64,000 bases of DNA from Candidatus Zixiibacteriota bacterium (GTDB lineage: Bacteria > Zixibacteria > MSB-5A5 > WJJR01): the NCBI GenBank assembly GCA_036397555.1, contig DASWIS010000001.1:120854-184853 (forward strand), in the 5' to 3' direction. Positions within the stretch are counted from its first letter, which is position 1, and every line of letters starts with the position of its first letter. The notes under the pieces were generated by a model, which saw nothing but the letters and a program-made list of their open reading frames with translations, made no database searches and was not told the DNA's origin. Of the stretch, positions 4,116 to 44,129 are shown piece after piece. Position numbers and translations under genes: made by a program.

Positions 4116-4252
4116 GTCAGCGGTGTCCGCATTCCACCCATTCCAACTTGTTAAGATTGTCACAATGAGAATGCGAGTCGAGGTTCCGGCTTGGATAGGC
4201 GGGAATAGCCGATATATTGAATTGTAATACGAAATCGGAGGGGCGTGCAGAT

Positions 4253-5896
4253 ATGAAGCATCTGTCCTCCCCAACAAGGGGCCTTCGGCCCAAAGCCAAT
4301 GGCCCCCTTTTGACGGGGACAATACTGTTACTGGCGTTGTTGCTGTTGCTGCCGGCAAGGACAGAGCAAGCCGCGGCAGGTCCTCTGTGGAGGGAAGGCG
4401 ATTCTGCGTGGGCGGTGGCCGACTCGGCGCGCCTCGCCGATCTGGCCGCACGGTTTCCCGACGGGATCATCCCGCTCTGGGCACTCAGGCAGGACGCGCC
4501 GATCGTACCAACGGGCGCGCCAGATGTCTCTACCCCCGTGTCACCACATGATGCGTCGGACGCTGATGGGTGTGGTCCGCCGATAATCGAGATCAGCCTC
4601 GGAGACAACCACATTGCACATCACTTTGATCCATCGAGCCAGACCACGGAAGTGTACGTGAGCGACAATGCCACTCTTCAATATCGCTTTGATGCCGAAC
4701 TCAATTACACCATAGACACGATTCCCGGTGTGAGTGAAGGGCCTTGGCTCGCCGTCGATCTCGATCGCGACGGTAATGTAGAACTCGTGACGCAGCACGC
4801 GGACATTCTGAGGATACGCTCAGCCCCGGACTGGACTGTGCGCGACTCGATCCAGTATCCGGGGATGGCCACGGTCATGAACCCGATTGCCATCAACGTC
4901 GACGCCGATGAGTACTTGGAGCTATGTGTCACACCGGTCGGATTCTTCTTCGACGGTTTCCTCTCTTTGATCAAGTACAACTCCGCTGCTGACTCGTTTG
5001 AGGAAGTCTCGCGTGTAATGCCGCCCAACGGCGCGATCGGGCGTCCGGCGGCTGGCGATTTTGACTCCGATGGGCGAGTCGAATTCATCTCGGGCAATTT
5101 CATCACGGGCTATGATCTGATCGAGTGGCAGGATACAGGCTTGGTGTACATCGGACACGTCGGTGACACGCTGCCGGGCAACAACTACAGCGCCATCGAA
5201 TGCCGTCCTAAACCGGATGGGCTGCTCTACGCACTTGCGGGCCACTCCGGCACGGACGGATGGACCTATCAGTTATTGAAGCCTGTCGGGGACAATGATT
5301 TCGTTGTCGACCGCCGATTCAGCGCCGCCACCGGGTTTACGGGAATCCACTCTGTGGGTTCCGGCGACACCGACTGTGACGGGCTCGATGAATTGGCCAT
5401 GCGGTTCTACCCAGATTATCAGACGTGGAAGTGGGATATGACGTCGTCGGATTTCGTTGTTTCATGTGCATGGAACAAGGATCAAGTCGGCACGATTGAG
5501 GCGTGGTATTCCGTCGATCTGGATCAAAACGGTACGCCTGAGTGGGGTATTCTCTCTTTGGAAGGCGGCACGTTTAGATCATATCCGTCGAGCTCATGCC
5601 ACGTTTGCGACACTCTCGGACGCTGTCAGATCACAAGTCCCTGGTGTTTCTGCCCGTGCGCCGGCGACCCGGTCTGCGATCAGGTGACCGATGTCTTCGA
5701 CGTCGTTCAGGGAGTTGATGTCGCGTTTCGGGCACAACCGGCTCCCTACTCGCTGAACTGCCCCAGGGATTTCACTGATATAAACTGCGACGGCGTCACC
5801 AACGTCTTCGACGTTGTCGGGCTGGTTGATGTGGCGTTCCGCAGCGGCGACCCTGCGGTGTTGTTCTGTAATCCGTGCCCGCTTTTGCAGCCATAG
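4253..5896 (+). CDS. secreted FG-GAP/VCBS-like beta-propeller repeat protein with C-terminal cysteine-rich dockerin-like double repeat
   Basis: Start MKHLSSPTRG... has a hydrophobic signal (LLLALLLLLPA) and an RBS ggagggg upstream. It carries repeated DxDxDG loops (DLDRDGNVE, GDFDSDGRVE, GDTDCDGLDE, VDLDQNGTPE). The C-terminus holds two copies of VT[DN]VFDVVxxVDVAFR, including DINCDGVTNVFD, a dockerin Ca-loop pattern, and ends FCNPCP. Confidence 0.7.
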   Translation: MKHLSSPTRGLRPKANGPLLTGTILLLALLLLLPARTEQAAAGPLWREGDSAWAVADSARLADLAARFPDGIIPLWALRQDAPIVPTGAPDVSTPVSPHDASDADGCGPPIIEISLGDNHIAHHFDPSSQTTEVYVSDNATLQYRFDAELNYTIDTIPGVSEGPWLAVDLDRDGNVELVTQHADILRIRSAPDWTVRDSIQYPGMATVMNPIAINVDADEYLELCVTPVGFFFDGFLSLIKYNSAADSFEEVSRVMPPNGAIGRPAAGDFDSDGRVEFISGNFITGYDLIEWQDTGLVYIGHVGDTLPGNNYSAIECRPKPDGLLYALAGHSGTDGWTYQLLKPVGDNDFVVDRRFSAATGFTGIHSVGSGDTDCDGLDELAMRFYPDYQTWKWDMTSSDFVVSCAWNKDQVGTIEAWYSVDLDQNGTPEWGILSLEGGTFRSYPSSSCHVCDTLGRCQITSPWCFCPCAGDPVCDQVTDVFDVVQGVDVAFRAQPAPYSLNCPRDFTDINCDGVTNVFDVVGLVDVAFRSGDPAVLFCNPCPLLQP

Positions 5897-21704: not shown

Positions 21705-22430
21705 ATGGACCAATCCGAGATTCAGCGGCTTCAAGAGGAAAACGCCAAGCTGCGCCGGCAGTTGGAACTGAGCCGGACGGCGTACGACTATCTGGTCCGA
21801 TTGGCGCACCATTTCTCCGGCGATGAGGTGGCCTTTGAGTCGCCCGATCAGATCCGGGCGTTCTGCGAACGGATCAAACGAGCGGTCGAGTCCTTAGTCG
21901 ACGGCATCAAGACGCTCATGGCCGGGCGCAAGCAGATGCAGCGCCAGTGGTCGTTGTATGCGTCGCAGCCACAGCAGGGCACGGCCTTTGTGCGCGTGGC
22001 AGAGCTCCGCGGCGATCTGGGGCGGTCGCTGTTGGACTGGCAGAACCCGGCTCTCGATGATCAGAACACGCGCCAACTGCAGAACTCCGTCAACGAGCTG
22101 AAACATCATCAATTGGCGCTGATGGCCGGATACGAGCGCTGTGTGCGCGAGGGGGCCTTGGCCGTACTGCGGGAGCTTGACCCCGACATTATAGAGGGAC
22201 GCGACGCGCCGGCCGCTGGAGGGCCGGAATCCCATGGGTCGTTGAAACAACTCCTGCCTTGGCGGACGGCCGGTTTGTTCCGAACATTCCGTCGGCGTTA
22301 CGCCGACTTGATTGCCGAAGACGCGCAGTGGTATCAATCGCGGTTTTTGCCGTTGTTTCGGCAGGGGTACAAGGAGTACATGTGGGCGGCGGTGGAGTCG
22401 GAATTATCCGGGGAGGGTCGACGGACATGA
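21705..22430 (+). CDS. hypothetical coiled-coil protein, first gene of the T6SS operon (uncharacterized T6SS-associated)
   Basis: 241 aa with N-terminal coiled coil (EIQRLQEENAKLRRQLEL). Its stop overlaps the tssJ ATG (ATGA). Confidence 0.5.
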   Translation: MDQSEIQRLQEENAKLRRQLELSRTAYDYLVRLAHHFSGDEVAFESPDQIRAFCERIKRAVESLVDGIKTLMAGRKQMQRQWSLYASQPQQGTAFVRVAELRGDLGRSLLDWQNPALDDQNTRQLQNSVNELKHHQLALMAGYERCVREGALAVLRELDPDIIEGRDAPAAGGPESHGSLKQLLPWRTAGLFRTFRRRYADLIAEDAQWYQSRFLPLFRQGYKEYMWAAVESELSGEGRRT

Positions 22431-22981
22431 GGCGGAACGCTACGATTGCGCATCGATCACGAGGAATCCGAATGATCGGCCTGGCCGAAGTGGGGCTTGT
22501 TTCAGTTGCCTTGGTGATCGGTTCAGGGTGCGGCTGGATCTTCGGCAAGCAGCAAAAGCCGATGCGTGTCGAAGTCGTCTTTGTCGGCAGCGATTCGCTC
22601 AACTTCGACGGCACGAAGTTTCAGCCGGTGCAGGTCAAGGCCTACATTCTGACTCGAGAGCACCGGTTCCTGGCCGCCGATGTGCGTGCATTCTTCAACC
22701 CGGAATTCGATCCGGGCTTCATGAGCGAGTTCGAGAAGGACATGCTGGGTTCGGCCACCGCGATTGTCGCGCCGGGGGAAAAGTCGTTGCCGATGCTCAT
22801 CGAGATTCCGTATGCCAAGCTGCACGATGTCAAGCCGATGATCGGCGTGATCGCCAACTTTGCACAGCCGCCGCGGGGTGAGCATCGTGAGCGCATGATC
22901 AAAGGCATTCCGAAGAAAAGCAAACAGATCGCCTGCTTTTCACTCGGAACCGACTGGGTGGAAGCGGGCAAGTGCCAATAG
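22427..22981 (+). CDS. tssJ: type VI secretion lipoprotein TssJ
   Basis: Lipobox LVIGSGCG. ~170-aa mature all-beta protein of TssJ size, positioned just before tssK-tssL-tssM. Confidence 0.6.
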   Translation: MRRNATIAHRSRGIRMIGLAEVGLVSVALVIGSGCGWIFGKQQKPMRVEVVFVGSDSLNFDGTKFQPVQVKAYILTREHRFLAADVRAFFNPEFDPGFMSEFEKDMLGSATAIVAPGEKSLPMLIEIPYAKLHDVKPMIGVIANFAQPPRGEHRERMIKGIPKKSKQIACFSLGTDWVEAGKCQ

Positions 22982-23017
22982 AACACCAATCACAGATCTG
23001 CGGATATTGCTGAACTG

Positions 23018-24373
23018 ATGCCGCCCTACCATCAAATCCTCTGGAGTGAGGGGCTTTTCCTCACCCAGCACCATTTCCAACAGTTTGATTCGTACATTGC
23101 CGGCGAGCGCGCGTTTTTGCTGCGCGCGCTGGTGCCGTTTGCGTGGGGACTTTCGCATCTGGCAATTGATGAGACCGCTGTGGAGAATCGGACGCTGACG
23201 GTCGGAGAGGTCGAAGGCATTTGGCCCGACGGGACCGCGGTCCGCGCGCCCTCAGTCGACGATTTGCCGGGAGGACGACCTTTCGAGTCGCTCTTTGCAC
23301 CAACCGCACGGGTGTTGCCGGTCTATCTGGGCTTGCCGCGACTGCGGCCCGGCACCGCGGGTGTGCAGATGGAGTCGGAGAAAACCCACGCGCCGACACG
23401 GTATGCGCGGGCCTTTGCACATGTTCCCGATGCGGTCACCGGCGAGCACGAGCGCGAGATTCCATATCTGAAAAAGAAGCTGGTGCTGCTCTTCGGCGGC
23501 GAGGATTTGGAAGGATACGATGTGTTGAAAATCGCCGAGGTGGAACGCAGCCCCGAGGGCAAAACACGACTGCGTCCATCCTATGTTCCGCCGCTCGTCT
23601 CGGTCCATTCGTCAAAGTATCTCACGACGGAACTGCGGGGCCTCTTGGAGACGGCATCGGCCAAATCCGAATCGCTGGCCGAGCAAGTCCGTCAGCGCAC
23701 GCCGACGCTGACCGAATTCTCCACGTCCGACTTTCCGAACTTCTTAAAGTTGCACACCGTCAATGCCTATATTCCATTGCTGTCGCAGTGGCACACGCAT
23801 CCACGCGCGCATCCGCTCGGCCTGTTTCAGTTGCTGGCGGCGTTCGCCGGGCACTTGTGCGGATTCAAAGTCGGTGAGCATCCACGCAATCTGCCCGCAT
23901 ATGATCACGACAACCTTGAAGGATCGTTCGCGCCCCTGGTTGTCAAGCTGCGCGAATTGCTGGAAGCGGTTGTTGAAGCGCGTTTTGTACGAATTCCGCT
24001 GGCGCAGCGCGACACGTCACGATTCGACGGACCCATCGAAGACGTATCGCTCTTTGAGCGCTCCGAATTCTATCTGGGCGTCGGCGCGGATTTGTCGGAA
24101 AGCAAGATTGCCTCGGAGTTTCCGCGTCACGCCAAGGTCATCTCCCCCGACAAAATGGAACGGCTCATCGGCGGAAATCTGCCGGGCGCCAATCTGATCT
24201 TCGTGCAACTGCCGCCGGCATCGGTGCCGCGCAAGGCGGGGATGGTGTACTTCCGCATCGATCCGCGCGGCGATCGCTGGGACTACATCAAGAAGGCGCG
24301 CCAGATCGCGATCTATGCCCCACCCGATGAATTCCCCGACTGGACTGTCGAATGTCTCGCGGTCGAGCGCTGA
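23018..24373 (+). CDS. tssK: type VI secretion baseplate protein TssK
   Basis: N-terminus ILWSEGLFLTQHHFQQFDSY matches the TssK signature (WSEGMFLxPQHFQQ). 451 aa. Confidence 0.85.
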   Translation: MPPYHQILWSEGLFLTQHHFQQFDSYIAGERAFLLRALVPFAWGLSHLAIDETAVENRTLTVGEVEGIWPDGTAVRAPSVDDLPGGRPFESLFAPTARVLPVYLGLPRLRPGTAGVQMESEKTHAPTRYARAFAHVPDAVTGEHEREIPYLKKKLVLLFGGEDLEGYDVLKIAEVERSPEGKTRLRPSYVPPLVSVHSSKYLTTELRGLLETASAKSESLAEQVRQRTPTLTEFSTSDFPNFLKLHTVNAYIPLLSQWHTHPRAHPLGLFQLLAAFAGHLCGFKVGEHPRNLPAYDHDNLEGSFAPLVVKLRELLEAVVEARFVRIPLAQRDTSRFDGPIEDVSLFERSEFYLGVGADLSESKIASEFPRHAKVISPDKMERLIGGNLPGANLIFVQLPPASVPRKAGMVYFRIDPRGDRWDYIKKARQIAIYAPPDEFPDWTVECLAVER

Positions 24374-24423
24374 GTTGACCGGAGCATTGACGACTTCACC
24401 ATCATGACCACGACCGTCATCAT

Positions 24424-25101
24424 ATGAGCACGACCGCACCGGGGGTCCTTCAACGCGCGTGCCGTCGCGCGTTTTCGCTGGTGCTCAACCTTCAGGACGG
24501 CGGCGATTTCGGCGACGCGGATGCACTTCGACGGCGTGTCACCGAAATGCTGGCATCGATGGAGAGCGACGCCAAGCAGGCCGGCGTCCTGGCAGAGGAT
24601 GTTCTCTCGGCACGATTCGCGCTGACCGCATTTATCGACGAGACGATCAACCGTTCCGATTGGCCGGGCAAATCGACCTGGGCGAATCGTCCGCTTTCGC
24701 TGGAACACTTCAATACCAACCGCGCCGGCGAAGAATTTTTCGAACGGCTCGCGGCGATTCGTCAGCGCCCCGAGGCGCAAACCGATCTGCTGGAAGTCTA
24801 TCACTGTTGTCTGGCGCTGGGATTCGAGGGACGATACGCACTGGCCGATCCGACTCACTTGCAGCAATTGGTCGAATCGACCATGCGCGAGTTGGAACGC
24901 ATTCGCGGCACATCGGCCGTACTGGCCCCGCATGGCGATCCACCCGCGCAAAGCGTCGCACAACTGGGCGGCGAAGTGCCGTTGTGGGTTTACTCGGGCG
25001 CGCTGGCCGCGTTGGCTTTCATCGTGTTCGTAATCCTGCGGGTCTTGTCGACGTCGCAGGCGCAGGAGACCGCCGACCGGCTGATTCGCCTGTTGCAATA
25101 A
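24424..25101 (+). CDS. tssL: type VI secretion membrane protein TssL (DotU/IcmH family)
   Basis: DotU-like core (FALTAFIDETI...LLEVYHCCLALGFEGRY) plus a single C-terminal transmembrane helix. Confidence 0.8.
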   Translation: MSTTAPGVLQRACRRAFSLVLNLQDGGDFGDADALRRRVTEMLASMESDAKQAGVLAEDVLSARFALTAFIDETINRSDWPGKSTWANRPLSLEHFNTNRAGEEFFERLAAIRQRPEAQTDLLEVYHCCLALGFEGRYALADPTHLQQLVESTMRELERIRGTSAVLAPHGDPPAQSVAQLGGEVPLWVYSGALAALAFIVFVILRVLSTSQAQETADRLIRLLQ

Positions 25102-25124
25102 CCACGCTCAGCATCGTCATCGCC

Positions 25125-28100
25125 ATGCTTGGCCTCATCCTCCCGTTTCTCAAGTCAAAGCTCGCGGCCGTGGGCGCGGTGCTGGTCATCGTCCTACTGA
25201 TCGCCATCGGCGGACCGAGAATCCTGGGGTCGCGCTGGCGGCTATGGTGCTATCTCGCCGCCCTGCTCATCCTCCTCATTTTCATCATTCATCTGGCGTT
25301 CAAGGCTTGGCGGGCGCGCAAGAAGGCGCGCCTGCTTGAAGGGTTTATGCAACGGCAGGCCGACGATCAGATGATGTCGGCGCGGCCCGATGCCCGCGAC
25401 GAGCTGGCCGCGATCAAGGAGAAACTCGACCGCGCCGTGACGGTTTTGAAGCAATCGCGTCTGGCCCGCGGACGGCGCGGCGCCGATGCGCTCTACCTGT
25501 TGCCGTGGTACATGATCATCGGTCCGTCGGCGGCCGGTAAATCGACCCTGTTGCGCAACAGCGGCCTGCATTTCCCGGCGGTCGATGTATCCGACGAGGC
25601 CAAAGTGCGCGGGCTGGGTGGCACACGCAACTGCGATTGGTGGCTGTCGACGCAGGGGATCGTGCTCGACACGGCCGGGCGATACAGTCTCACCGATGCC
25701 GCCGCCGACGACCGCGAAGAATGGTCGGGCTTTCTTTCCATGCTGAAGAAGGCGCGCGGCCGTGCACCGATCAACGGACTCATCCTCGCCGTGGCGCTCG
25801 ACGAAGTGCTCAAGCGCGGCAATGATGATTTGGAGACGCTGGCCAAGACTCTGCGCAGCCGCGTCGATGAATTGATCGTCAAGCTCGAGATTCAGTTTCC
25901 CATTTACGTCGTCTTCACGAAGTGCGACCTGGTCTCGGGTTTCAGCGAATACTTCCACGACTTCGGACGCGAGCAGCGCGAACAGATTTGGGGGTTCACG
26001 CGCAAGTACGAGCCCGTGACCGAGTCGCTGCAGCAGCAGTTCCTGCGTGAGGCGGGATACCTAGCTGCCGTTCTCGATCACCGTCGCTTGCGACAAATGA
26101 CGACGACCGTTCGCCCGATCCAGCGGCGCGGGGCGTATGTCATGCCGATCGAGTTCGCCAATGCCGCGCGCAAGCTGGCGCACTTCGTCGATGTGCTCTT
26201 CAGCCCCAACCCGTATCAGCAGAATCCGGTCGTGCGCGGCTTCTATTTTACGTCGGGCACGCAGGAAGGCGCGCCGATCGCACAGGTGATGGAGGCGATG
26301 CGCCGCGATTTCGGCCTCAGCGGCGGGATCGTGCCGCCGAGCGGCGCGGCGTCGGAGCCCAAACCGTACTTCATCAAGGATCTCTTCCAAAAGGTCATTC
26401 TTCCCGACGAGGCGAAGGTGCGTCCGCTGGGATCGGCGAGCCGTCGTCGGCGTTTCATCCGCTGGACGTGGATCGGGGCGCAGGCCGCCGCCGCCGGACT
26501 ACTCGTGTTATCTTTGTTCGGATCCTACCTGGCCAATCGCCGCTTCAATTCCGAGTTGCGCCGCACCACCGAGCACATTGCCGCCGCGTTGCCTCCCGGC
26601 GACGGATTTTCGCTGTCGAATCTCGACACGCTGGATATGCTGCGCGAAGCCCTGGTGCGGGCGGAAGCAGGACCCGGCCTCCAGCGCGGACTCGGGTTGT
26701 ATTCATCGCCGCCGGTCATTGCCGCTGCGCGTGATGTCTACTTCCGGAATCTGCAGCGGCTCTTGTTGCGTCCGCTCGATGTGCAGCTCAGGGCGCGATT
26801 ACGTGGGGAGTTCGATTTGAACACCGAGGCGGGGATCAACAGCTACTTCGAGTCGGCGATGGCCTATAAGATGATTACGCAACATTACGACTCGGTCTCG
26901 CACAATGTTTTCGAACTGATCGCGCAGGCCGATTCGGTGTGGCGTTCGCAGATTCCCATCGACGACCAGGCCCACTTCGGCGCGCTGATTGCCGATCAAC
27001 TCAATTACTACTGGTACCATCGTCCGGACACCACGCTGCGTTGGATGCGTGTCGCACCCGATCAGGCGCTGCTGGCCGACATCGAACGGGTTATGGCCGG
27101 TTTCTGGACCGTCGACCGGCTGTACCGGCGCATCATCAACGATGCCAACGGAACGCAGGGTCTGCTGACCATGCTCGATTTCGCTCCCGGGAGTGTTCGT
27201 CTGGCCGGGGCGCGGATCGGCGGCGCCTTCACCCGGGAGGGATGGAAGCTCGTTCTCGCCGATCGTATTCGCAACATGCCCGACGAGATCGCCGGCAACC
27301 CGGCGCTGCGGCAGACGCTGGGCCACTACGAGGACGACAAAATCCGCGAGGAGCTCACGCGTCGCTATGTCGATGAATTTCGCGGTGCGTGGCGAAAGTT
27401 CCTCGACTCGGTCATTGTGGTCAACTTCACCGATCTGACCGACGCCGCCTCCGGCCTCGATGAATTATCGCAGGACAATTCGCCGCTGTTATTGGTGCTG
27501 ACGCGCGCCTGGAATGAGAGCCGGTTGGACATCGGCGGCGATTACAAGAGCAAGATCGATGAAGAGTTCGTACCGCTCGCGCGCTTCCTCGGCGAAGCGA
27601 AACTGCCGGAAGGATCCCCCATTCCACGGGCCAGCTACATTGCACTGTTGGCCGAGCTGCCCAAGACGCTTGAAGAGCAGCGCGATTTGTTGCAGCAGCA
27701 GGCCAAGTGCGCACTACGTCTGCGCGCCCTGAAGACCGCGCTGGATCAACGCGAGCGCACGATCGCGCGATTGATCGACGGTTCGGCGGTCGCACGGTCC
27801 GCGTCGACGCTGCTGGTGCGTCCGCTGGATGCCGCGCGACGCAGCGCCTATGGCGAGATGTGCTCCTGCCTCAACCGCGTCTGGAATGAGACGGTTGCCG
27901 ACGAATTCGGTGCCGGGCTGGCGAGCGTCTATCCTTTCAATTCCACCAGCGAGGCCGAGGCATCGATGGCGCAGGTGGTATCGTTTTTTTCGACGGCGGG
28001 CATTTTTGCGTTCGAGGACGCCGAAGGTGCCCCGGCCCGTCAGGAGGGGATGTCGTTATCCGCCGATTACCAGCGGGCGCTGTCGGTCGCCGAAGACATC

Positions 28101-28520
28101 CGGCGCATGATCCAGGGCAGTAATCCGAGCGTCAACTTTACGTTGCGCGCGGCTTCGCAGGGTCTCTCCGGCATCCGCAAGCTGTCATTGGAATACGGCA
28201 GCACCCGTTGGGAATACGTTCCGGGCCCCGATGATCCGCGCGACTTCAAATGGCCGCAGGCGGGCGGGACCCATGTGTCGCTGAGCGTGGTGGCGGTCGA
28301 CCAGACATTGTATGCGATGCCGCGCCAAGAGACGGGCGAGTGGGCGATGCTGCGGCTCTTCGACGACGCCAAGTTCAGCGGCAATACCGTGCGCTGGGCC
28401 TTTCCGACCCAGGGTGGACCGACGCTGAACGCGCAGTACACCATCAGCGGCTCGGGTGCGCAGTTTATCAGCAGCGGGCACTTCTCGCGCTTCCAGTGTC
28501 CGGCCCGCGTGTGTCCGTAA
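25125..28520 (+). CDS. tssM: type VI secretion membrane ATPase TssM (IcmF family)
   Basis: Start MLGLILPFLK (N-terminal TM helices). Walker A GPSAAGKST. ~1130 aa. Confidence 0.85.
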   Translation: MLGLILPFLKSKLAAVGAVLVIVLLIAIGGPRILGSRWRLWCYLAALLILLIFIIHLAFKAWRARKKARLLEGFMQRQADDQMMSARPDARDELAAIKEKLDRAVTVLKQSRLARGRRGADALYLLPWYMIIGPSAAGKSTLLRNSGLHFPAVDVSDEAKVRGLGGTRNCDWWLSTQGIVLDTAGRYSLTDAAADDREEWSGFLSMLKKARGRAPINGLILAVALDEVLKRGNDDLETLAKTLRSRVDELIVKLEIQFPIYVVFTKCDLVSGFSEYFHDFGREQREQIWGFTRKYEPVTESLQQQFLREAGYLAAVLDHRRLRQMTTTVRPIQRRGAYVMPIEFANAARKLAHFVDVLFSPNPYQQNPVVRGFYFTSGTQEGAPIAQVMEAMRRDFGLSGGIVPPSGAASEPKPYFIKDLFQKVILPDEAKVRPLGSASRRRRFIRWTWIGAQAAAAGLLVLSLFGSYLANRRFNSELRRTTEHIAAALPPGDGFSLSNLDTLDMLREALVRAEAGPGLQRGLGLYSSPPVIAAARDVYFRNLQRLLLRPLDVQLRARLRGEFDLNTEAGINSYFESAMAYKMITQHYDSVSHNVFELIAQADSVWRSQIPIDDQAHFGALIADQLNYYWYHRPDTTLRWMRVAPDQALLADIERVMAGFWTVDRLYRRIINDANGTQGLLTMLDFAPGSVRLAGARIGGAFTREGWKLVLADRIRNMPDEIAGNPALRQTLGHYEDDKIREELTRRYVDEFRGAWRKFLDSVIVVNFTDLTDAASGLDELSQDNSPLLLVLTRAWNESRLDIGGDYKSKIDEEFVPLARFLGEAKLPEGSPIPRASYIALLAELPKTLEEQRDLLQQQAKCALRLRALKTALDQRERTIARLIDGSAVARSASTLLVRPLDAARRSAYGEMCSCLNRVWNETVADEFGAGLASVYPFNSTSEAEASMAQVVSFFSTAGIFAFEDAEGAPARQEGMSLSADYQRALSVAEDIRRMIQGSNPSVNFTLRAASQGLSGIRKLSLEYGSTRWEYVPGPDDPRDFKWPQAGGTHVSLSVVAVDQTLYAMPRQETGEWAMLRLFDDAKFSGNTVRWAFPTQGGPTLNAQYTISGSGAQFISSGHFSRFQCPARVCP

Positions 28521-28537
28521 CAACGCGTAATTCATCG

Positions 28538-29509
28538 ATGCCGACGGTGTCTCCCAGCATCGGGTTGTTCGGCAAGCTGCCGTCACATCCCGACTTTATC
28601 CGCCACATGGCGGGCGGCGAGGCAGCGCGCCGGCTTGATTCATGGCACAGCGACGGTCTGGCACACTTGCGTCGGATTCATCGTGGCGACTGGGAATCGC
28701 GCTTCGATGCGGCCCCTCCGGTGCAATTTGTCGTGCAAGCCGAATCGCAGCATGCGCTGGTCGGCGTGTGCGCGCCGTCGCGTGATTCCACCGGGCGTCG
28801 GTATCCGATCTCGGTGTTCGCGACAATTCCGGTGGGACGCAGCAACGCACGCGGCGAATGGCTGCCGGTCCTTTGCGGTCAGTTCCTGAATTTGGTCCGT
28901 CGAGAACTGGGCGCGGCATTGCGGGCGGAGTCGGGCGCCGATTTGACACAGTTTGCGGATCGCATGGTGCCGTTCCTGGACAAAGCGATTCTCGCGGACA
29001 GTCGGTCGACTCCCGAGACGATCGCAAACGCCACCATGCAATCGTTTTGGACCGGCATCCTTGGCGACTTTGCGGATCGCCGCAAGTACGTCGTCATCAA
29101 AAACCTGTTCGGTGTGATGGTTCCGCTGCGCGGAGGCGACACGACCCGACTGAGCGCCGCGCTGAATCTCCCGACTGGAGGCGATCCGGATGAGGCGCAC
29201 GTCGTCAGTGCGCTCTGGGCGCGTCTCTGCACCGCCGTTTCCGGCCATCCGCGGTTGCCGAATCTTTCCCTCTTTTGGCGCGAATCAATGGCGACACCGC
29301 AGCGCGGGGAGTGCTTTATTGCGTTGCGACCGCCGTCGGTTGGGCTGTGGTGCACCGTCATCGCCGGATCGCCGGCGAACGATTCATTCCTTGAGACCGA
29401 CACACCGAATGACGAACCGCAGGCGGCGCGTTCGGTGTTGGGGGAGCGCCTGGCATCGGCGCTCGATGATCCGGATCTGAACATGCTGGCGTTTATCAAA
29501 CGAATCTGA
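28538..29509 (+). CDS. tagF: type VI secretion-associated protein TagF (ImpM/DUF2094 family)
   Basis: N-terminal GLFGKLPSHPDFI matches the TagF hallmark (GFFGKLPxxGDF). Confidence 0.75.
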   Translation: MPTVSPSIGLFGKLPSHPDFIRHMAGGEAARRLDSWHSDGLAHLRRIHRGDWESRFDAAPPVQFVVQAESQHALVGVCAPSRDSTGRRYPISVFATIPVGRSNARGEWLPVLCGQFLNLVRRELGAALRAESGADLTQFADRMVPFLDKAILADSRSTPETIANATMQSFWTGILGDFADRRKYVVIKNLFGVMVPLRGGDTTRLSAALNLPTGGDPDEAHVVSALWARLCTAVSGHPRLPNLSLFWRESMATPQRGECFIALRPPSVGLWCTVIAGSPANDSFLETDTPNDEPQAARSVLGERLASALDDPDLNMLAFIKRI

Positions 29510-29528
29510 AACGCCGATTCACTGTGCG

Positions 29529-31079
29529 ATGAGCGAGCTGGCTGACATCACAGGATTGGGCAAGACCCCGATCGCCGGAGAGAGTCCGGTCGGGGCATCG
29601 GTGCAGTTCGACGAGGACTATGAAAAGCTTCGCGCCGAGATGCAGAAGCTCGACTCGGTCACCGGCGAGACGGTCGAGTGGAGTTTGGTCGAGAATACCG
29701 GTGTCGATATCCTGCAAAACCGATCCAAGCATCTCTTAGTCGGCATCTACCTCTCGCTGGCGCTCTTTGAACGCCACGACTATGCCGGTCTGGCTGCCGG
29801 ATTTTCGATCCTGCGCGATCTGGTCACGACTTTCTGGGACACGATGGAGCCGCCGCTCAAACGCAAACGCGGCCGGATCGAGGGGTTCGTATGGCTGTGC
29901 GAACGGCTCGGCACGTCGATGCCCGACCGCAAGCCCACGGCCAGCGAGATGGAGGCAATGAAAACCTGCAAGGCCGTCCTGGGAGAACTTGGCGCTGCGC
30001 TCAATGAGAAGCTCGCCGATGATGCCCCGGGGCTGGCCGACTTGGAACGGCTGGTCAACGCGCACATCAAGGACCTTGAGGCGGCGGTCAAAGCCGCCGA
30101 AACCCGCAAGGCCCAGGCAGAGAAAGTCGCCTCGGGAGATGTTGACGATACCTCGTCCCCCGATGACGCGCGCAAAGTCTACCAGAACATTCGCACGAAG
30201 ATCGCCAAGATTTGCCAGATTATCCGTCGCGCCGCCCCGCAAGACCCGATCGCATACCGGTTGTTGCGCGCCTCAACCTGGGGGCCGCTGCAGACTTCGC
30301 CGCCGGATACCAGTGGGGTCACGCAGATCCCCGCCCCCGGCCCTGAGATTCGGGCGCGTCTCGATACCCAAGAAGCCAAGGCAGAGTGGGGGCCGATGCT
30401 GGAGACAATCGAAACGGCATATGATAACTCCCCGCTCTGGCTGGACTTGCAGCACTATCTTCTGAAAGCGTTCGATGAGCTGGGTGAGCAATACGACCTT
30501 GCCGCCGAGGCGGTGCGAGCCGAAATCGTCTCATTATTACGCCGCCTTCCCGACCTGACTGTCTTGGAGTTTGCCGGCGGAGTGCCCTTCGCCGACCCGC
30601 AGACTCGCAAGTACTTAGATAAGATGGTCAAGGAGATGTCCGCTCCCCAGGGGGGTGGTCCGGGCGCCATTACCGGCGCCCCGCCCGGACTAGAGGAGGC
30701 GGTCGAAGAGGCGCGGCGTCTGGCCGGCAAAGGCAAATTGACTGAGGCGGTGGGGCGCATGCAGGCGGGAATCTCTTCCACCGGTGAGCATCGGGCGCGG
30801 TTTCTCTGGCGGCTTGAATTGGCGCGACTTTGCCTCGACTCAGGTCGTGTGATCCTCGCGGCGCCCCTGTTGGAAGAACTGGAAACCCTCATTGATCGGC
30901 ATAATCTCGAGGCATGGGAGCCAGATCTTTGCAAGACGGTCTATACGGCCTTGCTGTCGGCGCGCCGACTTTTGCTGAAAGACACGCGGAAGGCGACGCC
31001 CGAGCTGATTCAGAAGACCAATTTGCTTCAGGACCGTTTGTCACGCCTGGACCCAACGGCTTTATTATCGATGGAATAA
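29529..31079 (+). CDS. tssA: type VI secretion protein TssA (ImpA N-terminal domain)
   Basis: ImpA_N-like N-terminus (PIAGESPVGASVQFDEDYEKLRAEM). 516 aa. Confidence 0.75.
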   Translation: MSELADITGLGKTPIAGESPVGASVQFDEDYEKLRAEMQKLDSVTGETVEWSLVENTGVDILQNRSKHLLVGIYLSLALFERHDYAGLAAGFSILRDLVTTFWDTMEPPLKRKRGRIEGFVWLCERLGTSMPDRKPTASEMEAMKTCKAVLGELGAALNEKLADDAPGLADLERLVNAHIKDLEAAVKAAETRKAQAEKVASGDVDDTSSPDDARKVYQNIRTKIAKICQIIRRAAPQDPIAYRLLRASTWGPLQTSPPDTSGVTQIPAPGPEIRARLDTQEAKAEWGPMLETIETAYDNSPLWLDLQHYLLKAFDELGEQYDLAAEAVRAEIVSLLRRLPDLTVLEFAGGVPFADPQTRKYLDKMVKEMSAPQGGGPGAITGAPPGLEEAVEEARRLAGKGKLTEAVGRMQAGISSTGEHRARFLWRLELARLCLDSGRVILAAPLLEELETLIDRHNLEAWEPDLCKTVYTALLSARRLLLKDTRKATPELIQKTNLLQDRLSRLDPTALLSME

Positions 31080-31175
31080 GTCGTGCATCGGCGACCGTTA
31101 ACCTTTAATATAAAGAGCGACTTTTGGCCGTTTGATCAGTCGAACCGCAGGACCACACTGACGAGGTGATGGCGT

Positions 31176-31658
31176 ATGGCGCAGGAAGGATCGGTCGCCC
31201 CGAAGGAACGAGTTAACATCGTCTACAAGCCGGCAACCGGGGTCGACGAAGAACGCGAGCTTCCCTTAAAACTCTTGATGCTGGGCGATTACACCCAACG
31301 TCCCGATGACACCCCATTAGAGGAGCGCAAAGTCATCAACGTTGACAAGGACAACTTCAACGATGTGATGAAGGCGCAGAATCTCGCTGTTCAGGCAAAC
31401 GTCAAGAATGTCTTGGCCGAAGAAGAAGGCGCTGAGATGCCGGTCAACCTGAAGTTCGAGAATGTCAAAGACTTCGGGCCGGAAGCGGTCGCCCAGCAGG
31501 TCCCCGAGCTTAAACGGCTCCTGGAGTTGCGCAATGCGCTCCTGGCGCTAAAGGGACCCCTGGGCAATGTCCCGGGATTCCGCAAGAAGATCATGGACAT
31601 CATGTCCGACGATGCCGCGCGCGACAAGCTGATGAAGGAGTTGGGCATCGGGGGCTGA
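31176..31658 (+). CDS. tssB: type VI secretion sheath small subunit TssB (VipA)
   Basis: ERVNIVYKPATG...LPLKLLMLGDYT...NVDKDNFNDVM canonical TssB. Confidence 0.9.
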   Translation: MAQEGSVAPKERVNIVYKPATGVDEERELPLKLLMLGDYTQRPDDTPLEERKVINVDKDNFNDVMKAQNLAVQANVKNVLAEEEGAEMPVNLKFENVKDFGPEAVAQQVPELKRLLELRNALLALKGPLGNVPGFRKKIMDIMSDDAARDKLMKELGIGG

Positions 31659-31700
31659 GACCGCCGAAACTGAATCGAGTCGAAACAGGAGAAAGCACAG

Positions 31701-33185
31701 ATGGCGGAAGAACAACGGCAACAGCCAGAGGGCTCGTCCGGCGCGGCGGCGGGTGGATCGCTCGTCGAGGAAATCCTGCTGGAGACCAAGCTGAAGCCCT
31801 CCGACGAGGGGTTCAGCGCGGCGCGCGAGGGAATGCGCGAGTTGATCGGGCTTTTGTCGCAGCCCGATCGCAAGGGCGAGCGTGTCCAGCAGAAGATCGT
31901 CGATGAAATGATCGCCGAGATCGACCAGAAGATGAGCCGTCAACTCGATCAGATCCTCCACAACCCATCCTATCAGAAGATGGAATCGGCCTGGCGGGGG
32001 CTGAAATTGGTGGTCGACCGCACCGATTTCCGCGAAAACACCAAAATCGAGTACCTCAATGTCTCCAAGGAAGATTTGCTCAACGATTTTGAGGATTCGC
32101 CGGAAATTCCCAAGTCGGGTCTGTACAAGCTGGTCTATTCCCGCGAATACGGACAATTCGGCGGGTCCCCGGTCGGAGCAATGGTGGCCAACTACGATTT
32201 CGGTCCCGGCTCGCAGGACATTGCCCTGTTGCAATACTGCGCGTCGGTCAGCGCCATGTCGCATGCGCCATTCATTGCCGCGGCGGGGCCGCAATTCTTC
32301 GGCGAGGACACCTGGCTGAAGTTCCCGAATCTCAAAGACCTCAAGTCGATCATGGAGGGACCGCGGTACACGAAATGGCGCGGGTTTCGCGAGTCGGAAG
32401 ACTCACGCTACGTCGGTCTGACCGCGCCGCGTTTCCTGCTGCGGTTGCCCTATAACAAGAAGGACAACCCGGTTAAGTCCTTCGACTACAATGAAACGGT
32501 CACCGACAACCACGAAAGCTATCTGTGGGGCAACACGGCCTTTGCCCTCGCGACCCGTTTGACCGACAGCTTTGCGAAATGGCGCTGGTGTCCGAACATC
32601 ATCGGCCCCAAGGGAGGCGGCTCCGTCGAAAACCTCCCGATCCACACCTTCGAGTCGATGGGCGAAGTGCAGGCGAAGATTCCCACCGAGATCCTCATCA
32701 CCGAGCGGCGCGAGTTCGAACTGGCTGAAGAGGGTTTCATGGGCCTGACGATGCGCAAAGACTCCGATAATGCCTGCTTCTTCTCGGCCAACTCGGCGCA
32801 AAAGCCGAAGTTTTTCGGTACCTCCAAAGAAGGCAAAGACGCCGAGTTGAACTACAAGCTCGGAACCCAGCTACCCTATATCTTCATCGTTTCGCGTCTG
32901 GCGCACTATCTGAAGGTCCTGCAGCGCGAGAACCTCGGCAGTTGGAAGGAACGCGCCGATTTGGAGCGCGAACTCAATGATTGGATCCGTCAGTACGTTG
33001 TGGACATGGACAATCCCAAACCCGGTGTCCGCAGCCGCAAGCCGTTGCGCAAGGCGCAGGTGACCGTCGAGGACGTCGAGGGCAATCCGGGGTGGTACAA
33101 AGTCGACTTGAAGGTACGACCGCATTTCAAATACATGGGTTCGGATATCACATTGTCGCTGGTCGGAAAGCTGGATCAGAAGTAA
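31701..33185 (+). CDS. tssC: type VI secretion sheath large subunit TssC (VipB)
   Basis: 494 aa, canonical TssC blocks (SLVEEILLETKL..., ...WRGLKLVV...). Confidence 0.9.
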   Translation: MAEEQRQQPEGSSGAAAGGSLVEEILLETKLKPSDEGFSAAREGMRELIGLLSQPDRKGERVQQKIVDEMIAEIDQKMSRQLDQILHNPSYQKMESAWRGLKLVVDRTDFRENTKIEYLNVSKEDLLNDFEDSPEIPKSGLYKLVYSREYGQFGGSPVGAMVANYDFGPGSQDIALLQYCASVSAMSHAPFIAAAGPQFFGEDTWLKFPNLKDLKSIMEGPRYTKWRGFRESEDSRYVGLTAPRFLLRLPYNKKDNPVKSFDYNETVTDNHESYLWGNTAFALATRLTDSFAKWRWCPNIIGPKGGGSVENLPIHTFESMGEVQAKIPTEILITERREFELAEEGFMGLTMRKDSDNACFFSANSAQKPKFFGTSKEGKDAELNYKLGTQLPYIFIVSRLAHYLKVLQRENLGSWKERADLERELNDWIRQYVVDMDNPKPGVRSRKPLRKAQVTVEDVEGNPGWYKVDLKVRPHFKYMGSDITLSLVGKLDQK

Positions 33186-33249
33186 GACGCTGGCGGGGGG
33201 CGCCGACGCCAAGTGAGCACACCAGCAATCCCGTAGGAGGGTTTACGTC

Positions 33250-33735
33250 ATGCCAATGCCATTTTACATGACGCTGGAGGGTGAGGCGCAGGGTGCGATC
33301 GAGGGTTCGTGCGACCAGAGCGGGCGCGAGGGGACCATCCTCTGCCAGGCGCTGCAACACGACATCACGATCCCCCGCGATCCGCAGACCGGACAGCCGT
33401 CGGGTCTGCGCGTCCACAACCCGCTCGTCGTCACCAAAGTGTTCGACAAGGCCTCGCCGAAGCTGTACCAGGCGCTGACCTCCGGTGAGCGCATGAAGGA
33501 TGTCACGCTCAAGTGGTACCGCATCGACAAGGCCGGCATCGAGGAGCACTACTTCACGGTCAAGCTTGAAGATGCGATCGTCGTCTCGATGAGACCCTGG
33601 GTGCCCAACTGCCTCGATCCCCAGTATGAATCGCTGGGCCACATGGAAGACGTGTCCTTCACGTACCGTAAGATCATCTGGACCTGGGAGCCGGATGGCA
33701 TCGAATCCGAAGACGATTGGCGTCAACGCAAATAG
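33250..33735 (+). CDS. hcp: Hcp (TssD) tube protein
   Basis: FYMTLEGEAQGAIEGS... typical Hcp N-terminus. 161 aa. Confidence 0.85.
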   Translation: MPMPFYMTLEGEAQGAIEGSCDQSGREGTILCQALQHDITIPRDPQTGQPSGLRVHNPLVVTKVFDKASPKLYQALTSGERMKDVTLKWYRIDKAGIEEHYFTVKLEDAIVVSMRPWVPNCLDPQYESLGHMEDVSFTYRKIIWTWEPDGIESEDDWRQRK

Positions 33736-33848
33736 CGCTGGTGCCCTCGGATTCATTCGACATTGACGCGGTCCATCGGCGGCTCCGGACAGCATCCGGG
33801 GCCGCCGTTTTCATTGGCGTGACGATTCTCTTTGCTGACGGCAGGCGC

Positions 33849-34271
33849 ATGAACATCAACGAACGGACATTGCTGGAACGGCTCTCCGACCCCAATCCGG
33901 AAGGGGATCGACGGCTCCAGGTCGATGTCAGCCGGCTGAAACGATCGGTTCTCTTGCATCTGTCGCGCATGCTCAATTGCCGTCATGGGCATGCGCCGGC
34001 GCAGCCCGATTACGGGATTCCCGACCTCAACGAATTCATGTACGCCTTTCCCGATTCGATCACGCCGATGCGGCAGGCGATCCAGGCCTCCATCGAGAAG
34101 TATGAGCCGCGCCTGAAGAATGTGCGCGTCATCTGGTCGCCCGATGAGGATGACCCGCTCAATGTGCGCTTCGAGATCACCGCGCGTCTGATCACGGAGA
34201 AAGACGATCTTCCGGTGGCCTTCTCGACCAAAGCGAGCGGGGGCTCCGGGCTGGCGGTGGAGGAGAGTTAG
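33849..34271 (+). CDS. tssE: type VI secretion baseplate protein TssE (gp25-like)
   Basis: Internal start MNINERTLLERL...RLKRSVLLHLSRMLNCRHGH...DYGIPDL matches the gp25/GPW family. Confidence 0.8.
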   Translation: MNINERTLLERLSDPNPEGDRRLQVDVSRLKRSVLLHLSRMLNCRHGHAPAQPDYGIPDLNEFMYAFPDSITPMRQAIQASIEKYEPRLKNVRVIWSPDEDDPLNVRFEITARLITEKDDLPVAFSTKASGGSGLAVEES

Positions 34272-34313
34272 CAGTCGCGTCTGTTGTCCCGACGTCCAGT
34301 TCATTCACTGAAT

Positions 34314-36062
34314 ATGTTCAACAAATACTACCAGGACGAACTCTCCTACCTGCGCGCCATGGGACGCGAATTTGCCGGGGCCCATCCGCAACTGGCACCG
34401 ATGCTCGCCGAAGCCGGGACTGACCCGGATGTCGAACGGCTGTTGGAGGGGTTCGCGTTTCTCACCGGACGCATCCGTCAGCGGCTCGACAGCGAACTGC
34501 CGGAGCTGACCCATGCGCTGGTCGATCTTTTGTGGCCGCACTATCTGCGTCCGGTGCCGGCGATGTCGATTCTACAATTCGAGGCGGCCGCGACGCTGCA
34601 GGAGACACAGATCATCAAGCGCGGCACATCGATTGAATCGGCGCCGGTCGAGGGGACGCGCTGCCGTTTTCGCACGACTGCCGACGTGCGGCTGTATCCA
34701 TTTCGCATCAGTGACGTTAAGCTCGATGTCCCGTTGTCAAAGGCGGCGTCGCTCACCGTCACGTTCGCCGTCGGCGAGCAGGTCAACATGTCGGGACTGG
34801 ATTTGGGTCCGCTGCGCTTGTTTCTGCACGGTGACGCGCAACCGGTCGGACTTCTGTACTTGTGGCTGTGTCGTCATGTTCAGTCGGTCACCCTGCAATC
34901 GGGATCACAAAGTGCCTCGCTGCCGGTGTCAGCCGTTGTCCCCGCCGGGTTCGATGACGCCGAAGCGTTGTTGCCGTATCCGTCGGAATCGTTTGCGGCG
35001 TATCGACTGCTGCAGGAGTTCTTCGCGCTGCCGGAGCGGTATCACTTTATCGACATCGTCGACTTGCGTCCGCTGGCGCAGATGGAGTCCGTCCGGGATT
35101 TCTCCTTCGTCGTCACCTTCGATGAGAATCCCCCCGGTGAACTGCGCATCGGCCGCGACATGATCCGCGCCGGTTGCACGCCGATCGTCAATCTTCAGGG
35201 CATGCGCTCGGCGCCGGTGACGGTCGATCACGAACGCACCGAATACCGTTTGCGCGCCGATGCCTCCGACCCCGACCACTTCGAAGTCTTTTCAGTCGAC
35301 AAGGTGCTGGGATGGACCAAGGGGACACTGAAAGAACGTGAATACAAACGCTTCTTCTCGTTTTCGCATGTTCCGGGTACCGAGGGCGCCGATGGCGACC
35401 CGTATTACAACGTGCGCCTGCGTCCAGCATCGGTAGGCGCCGGTACTGACGTCTATTTGTCGTTTGTTGCCGAGTCGGAGTCCGGTGTCATGCCGCCGAC
35501 TGAGACGGTCGCCGCCGATCTCACCTGCACCAATAGAAATCTGCCCGCGAAGCTGCATCCCGGCGAGATCAACGTGCCCACTTCGCAGTCGCCGGCGTTC
35601 GCCACATTCAACAACATCACGCGCGTCACGCCATCGGTTGCACCGCCGTTGGAGGGACGTCTCCTGTGGCATTTGGTCGCACACCAATCGCTGAACTACC
35701 TGTCGTTGGCCGATGTCAATTCGCTGCGTGCGATGCTGGGGATGTACAACTTCCCGGCGCTCTCCGACCGTCAGGCGGCCCGCACCGGACGACAGCGGTT
35801 GGAGGGCATCACCAGGGTCAAGGCCGCGCCTGATGACATGATCCGCCATGGGGCGGCCCATCGCGGCATCGCGGTCGATCTGGAAATGGACGAGGAGAGC
35901 TTTGCCGGTGAAGGGGACATGTATTTGTTCGCGTCGGTATTGAATCGATTTTTTGGCCAATATGCCACGATCAATGCGTTCACGCGGCTGTCAGTGCGCG
36001 GGACGCGCCAGGGAGCGATCTACCAATGGCCGGCGATGCTGGGATCCCGACCACTTCTGTAG
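34314..36062 (+). CDS. tssF: type VI secretion baseplate protein TssF
   Basis: MFNKYYQDELSYLRAMGREFA... canonical TssF N-terminus. Confidence 0.85.
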   Translation: MFNKYYQDELSYLRAMGREFAGAHPQLAPMLAEAGTDPDVERLLEGFAFLTGRIRQRLDSELPELTHALVDLLWPHYLRPVPAMSILQFEAAATLQETQIIKRGTSIESAPVEGTRCRFRTTADVRLYPFRISDVKLDVPLSKAASLTVTFAVGEQVNMSGLDLGPLRLFLHGDAQPVGLLYLWLCRHVQSVTLQSGSQSASLPVSAVVPAGFDDAEALLPYPSESFAAYRLLQEFFALPERYHFIDIVDLRPLAQMESVRDFSFVVTFDENPPGELRIGRDMIRAGCTPIVNLQGMRSAPVTVDHERTEYRLRADASDPDHFEVFSVDKVLGWTKGTLKEREYKRFFSFSHVPGTEGADGDPYYNVRLRPASVGAGTDVYLSFVAESESGVMPPTETVAADLTCTNRNLPAKLHPGEINVPTSQSPAFATFNNITRVTPSVAPPLEGRLLWHLVAHQSLNYLSLADVNSLRAMLGMYNFPALSDRQAARTGRQRLEGITRVKAAPDDMIRHGAAHRGIAVDLEMDEESFAGEGDMYLFASVLNRFFGQYATINAFTRLSVRGTRQGAIYQWPAMLGSRPLL

Positions 36063-37033: not shown

Positions 37034-37078
37034 AGAGTACATTGCAGGCGGGGATGTATCCCCGATAGGACACACCTC

Positions 37079-39754: not shown

Positions 39755-39782
39755 CTGCGGCGTGGCGCGTTGATATACCTGT

Positions 39783-40355: not shown

Positions 40356-40373
40356 GTCGGGTGTTGATGGGAT

Positions 40374-42536: not shown

Positions 42537-42547
42537 GAGCGACACAT

Positions 42548-42988: not shown

Positions 42989-43048
42989 CGACGCACCGAT
43001 TCCCACGATTGACGAGACACTGATGTCCCGTCGCGCTGCCATCCATCC

Positions 43049-44125: not shown

Positions 44126-44129
44126 ATCG

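Follow-up and report, generated by a model that had tools for sequence, protein, structure and literature searches.

Why do two secreted proteins with unrelated bodies end in the same small, cysteine-rich module? This question is raised by a stretch of 64,000 nucleotides from a Candidatus Zixiibacteriota bacterium (contig DASWIS010000001.1, positions 120,854 to 184,853 of the forward strand; "the window" hereafter), in which an earlier reading of the bare letters (the original prediction) had noticed a dockerin-like segment at the C-termini of an FG-GAP-like protein and of a second, larger protein, here called proteins A and B. The module belongs to a large family of divergent dockerin-like modules and is linked with another domain, X, for which a cohesin fold is predicted and which is found in the window on a protein ending in a type IX secretion system (T9SS) C-terminal domain (CTD). 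Probably, the two domains are parts of a divergent, non-cellulosomal cohesin-dockerin system for surface display that is anchored via the T9SS.

The C-terminal module and its family

Gene A (VGB22_00570; 4253..5896, + strand) encodes a protein of 547 amino acids (aa) and gene B (VGB22_00790; 51825..55271, +) one of 1148 aa, both labelled "hypothetical protein" by NCBI. In protein A, a predicted signal peptide precedes a beta-propeller body of FG-GAP-like type, and the dockerin-like module closes the chain at the C-terminus; the FG-GAP label that the protein had received at first is borne out by a match to FG-GAP_3 (E 1.3e-6) in a Pfam scan (a 2025 copy here and below; NCBIfam was used in release 20). 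The open reading frame (ORF) of gene A is open from 4217, and the NCBI start is the ATG at 4253, with GGAGG upstream of it. In the JGI call of the same protein (locus L004; window 4217..4340), a Leu start lies within the hydrophobic core and gives a product of 519 aa beginning with LLLLLPART. Because this start loses the signal peptide and GGAGG precedes ATG 4253, the NCBI start seems more plausible, and a Sec signal peptide running from Met 4253 (MKHLSSPTRGLRPKANGPLLTGTILLLALLLLLPARTEQAAA) is plausible as well. Protein B has a clear, textbook signal peptide with a predicted cleavage between MTGKILKVGAAICLAVLVLAGTANA and FE, followed by a large uncharacterised body and the module. The body (1060 aa, 51825..55022) has no significant Pfam or NCBIfam family, DUF7015 being reached at E 0.033 only. 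Protein B had been called a BNR protein, a label that Pfam does not back: the scan gives no BNR match in it, and a single Asp-box-like motif, SRDDGNSW, is found. The same body is shared by two relatives, P0066 and P0068, and represents a large uncharacterised extracellular domain set.

The C-termini of A and B align over 82 aa with 55% identity (BLASTP, E 3e-17), a value that rules out chance similarity, and the internal repeats of the two modules also match each other (BLASTP, E 1e-7). The homology asserted in the original prediction is thereby established. By a six-frame motif scan and a scan with a hidden Markov model (HMM), the window contains exactly two copies of the module. The copy of A is located at 5645..5893 (+; CFCPCAGDPVCDQVTDVFDVVQGVDVAFRAQPAPYSLNCPRDFTDINCDGVTNVFDVVGLVDVAFRSGDPAVLFCNPCPLLQP), inside the span of 5600..5896 first assigned to it, and has all eight cysteines of the family; that of B is located at 55023..55268 (+; local HMM E 5e-33) and has six of the eight, C3 and C4 being absent. 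In A, repeat 1 (5666..5731, +) consists of an F-hand-like loop, DPVCDQVTDVFD (5666..5701), and the helix VVQGVDVAFR (5702..5731); this loop is partly degenerate, with V at position 3 and Q at position 6. Repeat 2 (5777..5842, +) consists of a canonical dockerin loop, DINCDGVTNVFD (5777..5812), and the helix VVGLVDVAFR (5813..5842). As had been proposed from the letters, this 12-residue loop agrees with the dockerin consensus, namely at D1, N3, D5, G6, N9 and D12. Both loops of B are degenerate: one residue is inserted in loop 1, DPAGNGTVTNVFD, and position 5 of loop 2, NVDCLNVTNVFD, is Leu. Directly upstream of the module of A there is an extra Cys-rich stretch, PSSSCHVCDTLGRCQITSPW (5585..5644, +), which is outside the family profile; an apparent orthologue of protein A, P0005, has a similar one, PECDGCNDEGLCPAGLC.

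A word-indexed homology search gave two matches with a single module as the query and 49 with a four-sequence profile, all of them fragments of 170 aa or less, and a genome scan with an early module alignment gave three loci. An exhaustive HMMER search of 1.84 billion cluster representatives (50%-identity clusters), with a profile made from the window copies and the first relatives, found 4775 representatives at E<=1e-3, 1025 at E<=1e-10 and 88 at E<=1e-30. The position of the module is nearly constant: in 187 of 193 carriers, no more than 15 aa lie between its end and the C-terminus (median 1 aa). Carrier bodies are diverse and extracellular, including FG-GAP, SBBP propellers, Laminin_G_3, MAM/M6, PKD, TSP_3, beta-helix and M14/M28/M64 peptidases among 74 long carriers; the 25 families listed for these include no glycoside hydrolase family. 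Many carriers have Sec-type signal peptides at the N-terminus. Named relatives come from Zixibacteria, Ignavibacteria and one metagenome-assembled genome (MAG) labelled "Acidobacteriota". No dedicated secretion machinery was found in the gene neighbourhoods of three relatives (P0129, P0047 and P0019), which contain housekeeping genes. Small proteins of ~150-240 aa (P0039-P0045 and many of the best matches in the exhaustive search) make up a further abundant family, composed of a signal peptide, a segment of ~80 aa and the module. The segment is unannotated and has the motif SGGTVAAQS..HRVSG..GQ...GFWNT, and the module of these proteins is the six-cysteine form without C3 and C4.

Residue frequencies were counted over 190 aligned modules. 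The Asp at position 12 is present in all 190 modules in both loops, and D1 is present in 187/190 (loop 1) and 183/190 (loop 2). Position 5 is D in 167/190 of the first loops and mostly D, S or N in the second, and N or D occupies position 9 in 164/190 and 150/190, respectively. Position 3 is variable in loop 1, which has Pro at position 2, and is D or N in 159/190 in loop 2. In the helix after each loop the motif V-[ND]-V-A-F-R is more than 90% conserved in both repeats. The family thus has two tandem segments of an F-hand loop plus a helix, with repeat 1 of A and both repeats of B partly degenerate.

Is the module, then, a dockerin? The AlphaFold2 (AF2) model of the A module is helical, with a mean predicted local distance difference test score (pLDDT) of 89.7 and a predicted template modelling score (pTM) of 0.80, and the first 32 Foldseek matches of this model are all dockerins (template modelling score, TM, 0.64-0.75). 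When the family profile was compared with PDB sequences, eight of nine weak matches were dockerins, with both repeats in register (best E 0.009). The Pfam dockerin model, PF00404, is matched below threshold by 13 of 33 relatives (best E 5e-4). Neither window copy matches PF00404 at E<=10, let alone its gathering threshold of 22.9 bits, or any other model of Pfam or NCBIfam. The original prediction had named a score below the dockerin threshold as a refutation. Formally the window copies fall under it, yet the refutation does not hold, since both the predicted fold and the profile comparisons group the module with dockerins despite the failed threshold: judged by its model, it is a strongly divergent bona fide dockerin missed by current models. 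Two further identities were tried and rejected. As a T9SS CTD, the module should resemble TIGR04183 or PF18962, and it matches neither, its model being helical and not a beta-sandwich. As a repeats-in-toxin (RTX) signal of the type I secretion system, it is contradicted by the Sec-type signal peptides of the carriers, by the lack of RTX matches and by the weakness of EF-hand matches (E>0.01).

The cysteines are arranged as C1xC2xC3-H-G-D-P-x-C4-D-G ... C5-P ... D-x-x-C6-D-G ... F-C7-x-P-C8, and all eight are present in 147 of the 190 modules. The conserved cysteine pairs that had been described as flanking each repeat are thus a family-wide and non-classical feature, complete in A, although the description fits B only in part, C3 and C4 being missing there. 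These two are jointly absent in ~24 modules, protein B included, and singly in three; such nearly constant joint loss speaks strongly for a C3-C4 disulfide. In five independent sequences both C6 and C7 are absent, and in two to four only one of them is; their joint loss gives moderate evidence for a C6-C7 disulfide. In classical dockerins, residues -1 to -3 form a non-covalent clasp (stacking or salt bridges) with the C-terminal tail, and the clasp residues before the first calcium loop and at the C-terminal end stabilise the fold and the cohesin-binding surface (PMC3821032). The family cysteines are located in the same two segments (-6, -4 and -2, and the terminal FCxPC). Because of this location, a covalent version of the clasp may reasonably be inferred for the family, unlike the non-covalent clasp of classical dockerins (PMC3821032); co-loss backs only the C3-C4 and C6-C7 bonds. 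Up to four disulfides, with the clasp pairing expected among C1, C2, C5 and C8, would then replace or reinforce the clasp between the N- and C-terminal ends.

The X domain, its carriers and their gene neighbourhoods

In relatives with several modules, each internal module is followed, after 10-20 residues, by a spacer of ~185 aa, named X here. X, which Pfam does not recognise, has its own conserved motifs: VESKxV, LPLExR, SPDGxLW, FEIDTxCxxPGNHL and FTKGxITV. An HMM was built from seven spacer copies, and X homologues were drawn from the carriers of the exhaustive search and from a metagenome scan. By this HMM, X is present in 19 of the 193 module carriers, in the architectures SP-X-Doc, X-...-Doc and (Doc-X)n-Doc, where SP stands for the signal peptide and Doc for the module; each internal Doc copy is directly succeeded by X.

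In the window, X is found in the gene for an HYR-repeat protein (HEX9749816; 57963..63857, +; 1964 aa; NCBI label "HYR domain-containing protein", HYR E 3.4e-80), and gene B ends 2.7 kb upstream of it. The protein consists of a signal peptide, X, HYR/Ig repeats and a T9SS type A CTD, with Pfam matches to FlgD_ig and Por_Secre_tail. Its X (58032..58565, +; 178 aa; X HMM E 2.8e-33) starts right after the predicted signal peptide cleavage site, between PLAHA and ADRVEVESK. The CTD (63603..63854, +; YPNPFNPSTAISF...SGIYFYRIE...KKMTFLK) matches TIGR04183 over residues 1881-1960 with 32.2 bits, above the cutoff of 23 bits; the remark in the original prediction that this organism uses T9SS CTDs is therefore correct.

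X gives no sign of being a cohesin at the level of sequence. Pfam Cohesin (PF00963) is matched neither by the HYR protein nor by X-rich relatives, even at E<=10, and it is absent from scans of ~30 ORFs of the window; the X profile has no match among PDB sequences, and a word-indexed homology search with X found nothing. The fold gives a different picture. The window X was modelled by AF2 with medium confidence (pLDDT 72.8, and 80-92 in the core strands; pTM 0.72), and a Foldseek search with this model has cohesins for each of its top 26 PDB matches (E 2e-6 to 2e-3, with a probability of 1.00 and a TM normalised to the target of up to 0.74), among them the non-cellulosomal Archaeoglobus cohesin 2XDH. 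X thus shows the cohesin beta-sandwich fold in its model while lacking a cohesin sequence match. Since the folds match but curated sequence models do not, the module and X are divergent members of the dockerin and cohesin superfamilies, outside the Pfam families as now modelled. It had been stated that no cohesin-like partner is visible in the window; this is wrong in view of the domain at 58032..58565 of the T9SS-anchored HYR protein, which makes X a candidate receptor for the dockerin-like modules and the HYR protein a candidate anchoring scaffold.

The linkage of Doc and X is seen at metagenome loci as well. A metagenome scan seeded with X gave 14 loci, and Doc is also present in most of the X ORFs. 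Among loci found with Doc as the seed, an X...CTD gene is located immediately downstream of a Doc gene in L006, and an SP-X-Doc gene immediately downstream of a Doc gene in L008. There are larger clusters too: in L017 four Doc genes, of which two contain X, follow one another, and L021 has a row of three Doc genes. Furthermore, all six complete X proteins without Doc carry a TIGR04183 domain above the cutoff, and X is always at their mature N-terminus. Besides the HYR protein of the window, these are proteins of L014 (49.5 bits), L016 (44.5), L019 (46.0), L023 (41.6) and L006 (30.8). Among 226 Doc-bearing ORFs or proteins, not one is matched by an HMM made from the CTDs of X proteins. At the C-terminus, Doc and the T9SS CTD strictly exclude each other. 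The X domains of Doc-bearing and of CTD proteins do not form separate clades, the mean identity being 34-39% within the groups and 35% between them.

Several side observations concern these proteins. The internal modules of (Doc-X)n proteins are far more divergent than the C-terminal copy of the protein concerned (CDCPGQFDPTRNGIPLEVGDLV...DGDVDCNGVIDILDLV; P0052, P0054; L010:3886-6714), which hints at a second docking specificity and at hierarchical or polymer assembly. Two X-TSP_3-Doc proteins (L017:10787-13144 and L018:9622-11406) have calcium-binding thrombospondin type 3 repeats resembling those of the Myxococcus cell-cell cohesion protein MtsC, with a score far below the cutoff of the MtsC model. 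A protein of 1668 aa with X...PKD...T9SS-CTD architecture (L023:2264-7267) has a weak internal Dockerin_1 match at residues 1445-1509 (E 0.004), so cohesin-like and dockerin-like elements of different types may be combined in one anchor. T9SS-CTD proteins without X adjoin X/Doc gene clusters at L016:9509-12160 and L020:8781-10760 (-), and because of these further CTD genes the X/Doc loci look like islands of surface-protein genes.

The window contains, in addition, a complete type VI secretion gene cluster at 21705..46279 (+). It encodes an FHA-C protein, a TssJ-like lipoprotein, TssK, TssM/IcmF (24459..28520), TagF, TssA, the TssC sheath protein (31701..33185), TssF, TssG, ClpV (37079..39754), VgrG (40374..42536), a DUF2169 protein and a PAAR-like/Tox-GHH2 nuclease effector (45083..46279). 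Unannotated ORFs after the effector gene could be immunity genes.

Proposed docking onto anchored scaffolds and its rivals

What would the two domains do together? In the cohesin-dockerin reading, the module, as the last element of many unrelated proteins that Zixibacteria-like bacteria (Fibrobacterota-Chlorobiota-Bacteroidota group, FCB group) export via Sec, would plug these proteins into X, presumably by Ca2+-binding and Ca2+-dependent docking. The HYR protein would be exported by the T9SS and fixed covalently to the outer surface, with X at its distal N-terminal tip; more generally, long HYR/PKD stalk proteins would present X away from the CTD base. A and B would be held at the cell surface by docking non-covalently onto scaffolds of this T9SS-anchored kind, with the HYR protein as their putative specific partner. 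Proteins of the X-Doc and (Doc-X)n types would act as adaptors or as polymerising extensions. Surface anchoring, the role first suggested for the module, is supported in this form, and not catalysis.

A number of points weigh against this reading. No dockerin model of Pfam or NCBIfam is reached by either module copy and no cohesin model or PDB sequence by X, so that the dockerin and cohesin assignments both depend on structure predictions; the one for X has medium confidence only, and its loop 72-101 falls below pLDDT 50. Ca2+ binding at every site of the family is doubtful in view of the Pro at position 2 and the variable residue at position 3 of loop 1 and of the degenerate loops of B. There is one X for two Docs within the window. 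X could be another passenger domain common in these lineages, and the tight adjacency of Doc-X and X-Doc could reflect intramolecular packing as in X-Doc dyads. Finally, Doc carriers have a Sec signal only, which does not account for their crossing the outer membrane of a diderm to a surface scaffold. Because this crossing is the main gap, there is room for a variant in which Doc is a trans-acting ticket for the T9SS: proteins with Doc would fold and form their disulfides in the periplasm after Sec export, dock there onto X of a T9SS cargo, pass through the translocon piggy-back and become attached to the surface, where X-Doc and (Doc-X)n proteins would polymerise head-to-tail into a multilayer coat. 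Such a route would account for both the Doc/CTD alternation and the outer-membrane crossing, though we hold it to be unlikely.

Three rival explanations need weighing against the cohesin-dockerin reading, and each of them is weakened by the cohesin fold of X, by the internal Docs and by the rule that X goes with either a CTD or a Doc. The module might work alone, as a C-terminal domain stabilised by Ca2+ and disulfides that binds lipopolysaccharide, exopolysaccharide or mineral and metal surfaces, or that just stabilises extracellular proteins, X being a mere passenger. Peer et al. are said to have found, in 2009, many dockerin-like modules in genomes without recognisable cohesins (as cited in PMC8542988), and such a role would suit carrier bodies that are very diverse and not carbohydrate-active enzymes (CAZymes), the presence of X in no more than 19 of 193 carriers, and the near-invariant VNVAFR of both helices in about 1000 clusters, which could mean a non-protein ligand or a structural constraint. 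X, however, has the fold of a cohesin and not an arbitrary one, it comes after every internal Doc, the proteins that have X alone are all T9SS-anchored, and Doc and X genes adjoin in independent loci; two chance passengers are unlikely in view of this internal order, anchoring and gene neighbourhood, and the stand-alone role seems improbable, if less so than the other alternatives. Another proposal, already hinted at in the original prediction, sees in the module a C-terminal signal by which proteins are exported or sorted through an outer-membrane translocation or attachment machinery other than the T9SS CTD pathway. It draws on the strictly C-terminal position (median 1 residue from the end), on the mutual exclusion with the T9SS CTD, on the use of one highly conserved module for unrelated cargo, and on carriers that have Sec signal peptides and no other known outer-membrane targeting signal. 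Classical dockerins are C-terminal too, however, and their fold, which the module shares, is that of a known protein-protein adaptor; internal copies in (Doc-X)n proteins are not explained by a C-terminal signal and argue against a pure export tag, and no candidate machinery is linked with the module in the window or in the 23 loci. A sorting tag distinct from dockerins is not needed, and we give it a small chance, as small as that of the piggy-back route.

The remaining rival takes the close spacing of the two domains literally: X would pack on the adjacent dockerin like the X module of type II/III X-Doc dyads, and the receptor would be a third component. In all fusion proteins the gap between X and Doc is only ~0-20 residues, on either side, as expected for such a dyad. 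This identity for X was rejected: the fold search matches cohesins, not X modules. Six T9SS-anchored proteins, that of the window included, have X at their tip and no Doc at all, and A and B have Doc without X. The dyad is thus the least likely of the explanations considered here, and docking of Doc onto X as part of a surface-display system is the one that we prefer.

Relation to known systems

In the alignment with sequences of classical type I dockerins (PF00404; 1OHZ_B/2CCL_B, 4DH2_D, 8AJY_D), these lack the eight cysteines of the module family. The family further differs from them in having Pro at position 2 and a non-ligand residue at position 3 of loop 1, and in its almost invariant V[ND]VAFR, which stands in place of species-specific recognition residues. 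While type I dockerins are known from clostridial and ruminococcal cellulosomes, the hosts of the module are FCB-group diderms and the cargo is not CAZyme-dominated. A cellulosome was rejected as an identity on this last ground, and also because the scaffold of the window has one X and HYR repeats and no carbohydrate-binding module (CBM).

The model of X is an all-beta sandwich like that of cohesins (PF00963; 6KGE_A, 5NRM_A, 4UYP_A; Archaeoglobus fulgidus 2XDH), and, as in cohesins of anchoring scaffoldins, X is N-terminal to a C-terminal surface anchor. The proposed X-CTD topology would correspond to that of clostridial anchoring scaffoldins, where the cohesin is N-terminal and the cell-wall anchor C-terminal. 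X differs from cohesins in being ~40 aa longer, in its low-confidence insertion (residues 72-101) and in its own conserved motifs. In another respect the module resembles the T9SS type A CTD (TIGR04183/PF18962): both are ~80 aa long, and the same organisms have them as the very last part of secreted proteins of diverse kinds. The type A CTD is a beta-sandwich that the T9SS recognises and PorU cleaves, whereas the module is helical and has a dockerin fold.

Both halves of the putative docking pair are invisible to Pfam and NCBIfam models, and the dockerin-like half alone amounts to more than 1000 metagenome clusters; two new HMMs would let annotators spot surface proteomes in these phyla. If the cohesin-dockerin reading is true, this type of assembly would be a general means of surface decoration in uncultivated FCB-group diderms, used for peptidases, beta-propellers and adhesin-like proteins as well as for cellulases, and non-covalent docking would be tied to T9SS anchoring. 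A small, highly conserved, disulfide-stapled dockerin/cohesin pair could also be a robust tool for protein assembly.

In the literature searched, no description of a cysteine-stapled dockerin or of cohesin or dockerin in Zixibacteria was found. A single earlier proposal, made from MAGs, combines cohesin-dockerin pairs with T9SS anchoring in FCB bacteria: the MAGs of "Ca. Stygibacter" (Cloacimonadota) encode a predicted cohesin scaffoldin with a T9SS CTD and signal-peptide proteins with C-terminal dockerins (PMC8542988). The two cases agree in the FCB-group diderm host, the C-terminal position of the dockerins and the cohesin scaffold ending in a T9SS CTD, both systems being predicted only. In "Ca. 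Stygibacter", standard InterPro models recognise the domains, the scaffold has tandem cohesins and CBMs, and the cargo includes GH18/GH57 proteins and peptidases (PMC8542988). In the case described here, by contrast, both partners escape standard models, an HYR/PKD stalk carries a single N-terminal cohesin-like domain, adaptors of the X-Doc type are frequent, and the dockerin would be cysteine-stapled. New relative to that proposal, and described nowhere in the literature searched, are the dockerin subfamily with putative cysteine staples and the size of this subfamily, the cryptic family of cohesin-like domains, the anchors with X at the tip and the CTD at the base, the frequent X-Doc adaptors and the strict alternation of Doc and CTD.

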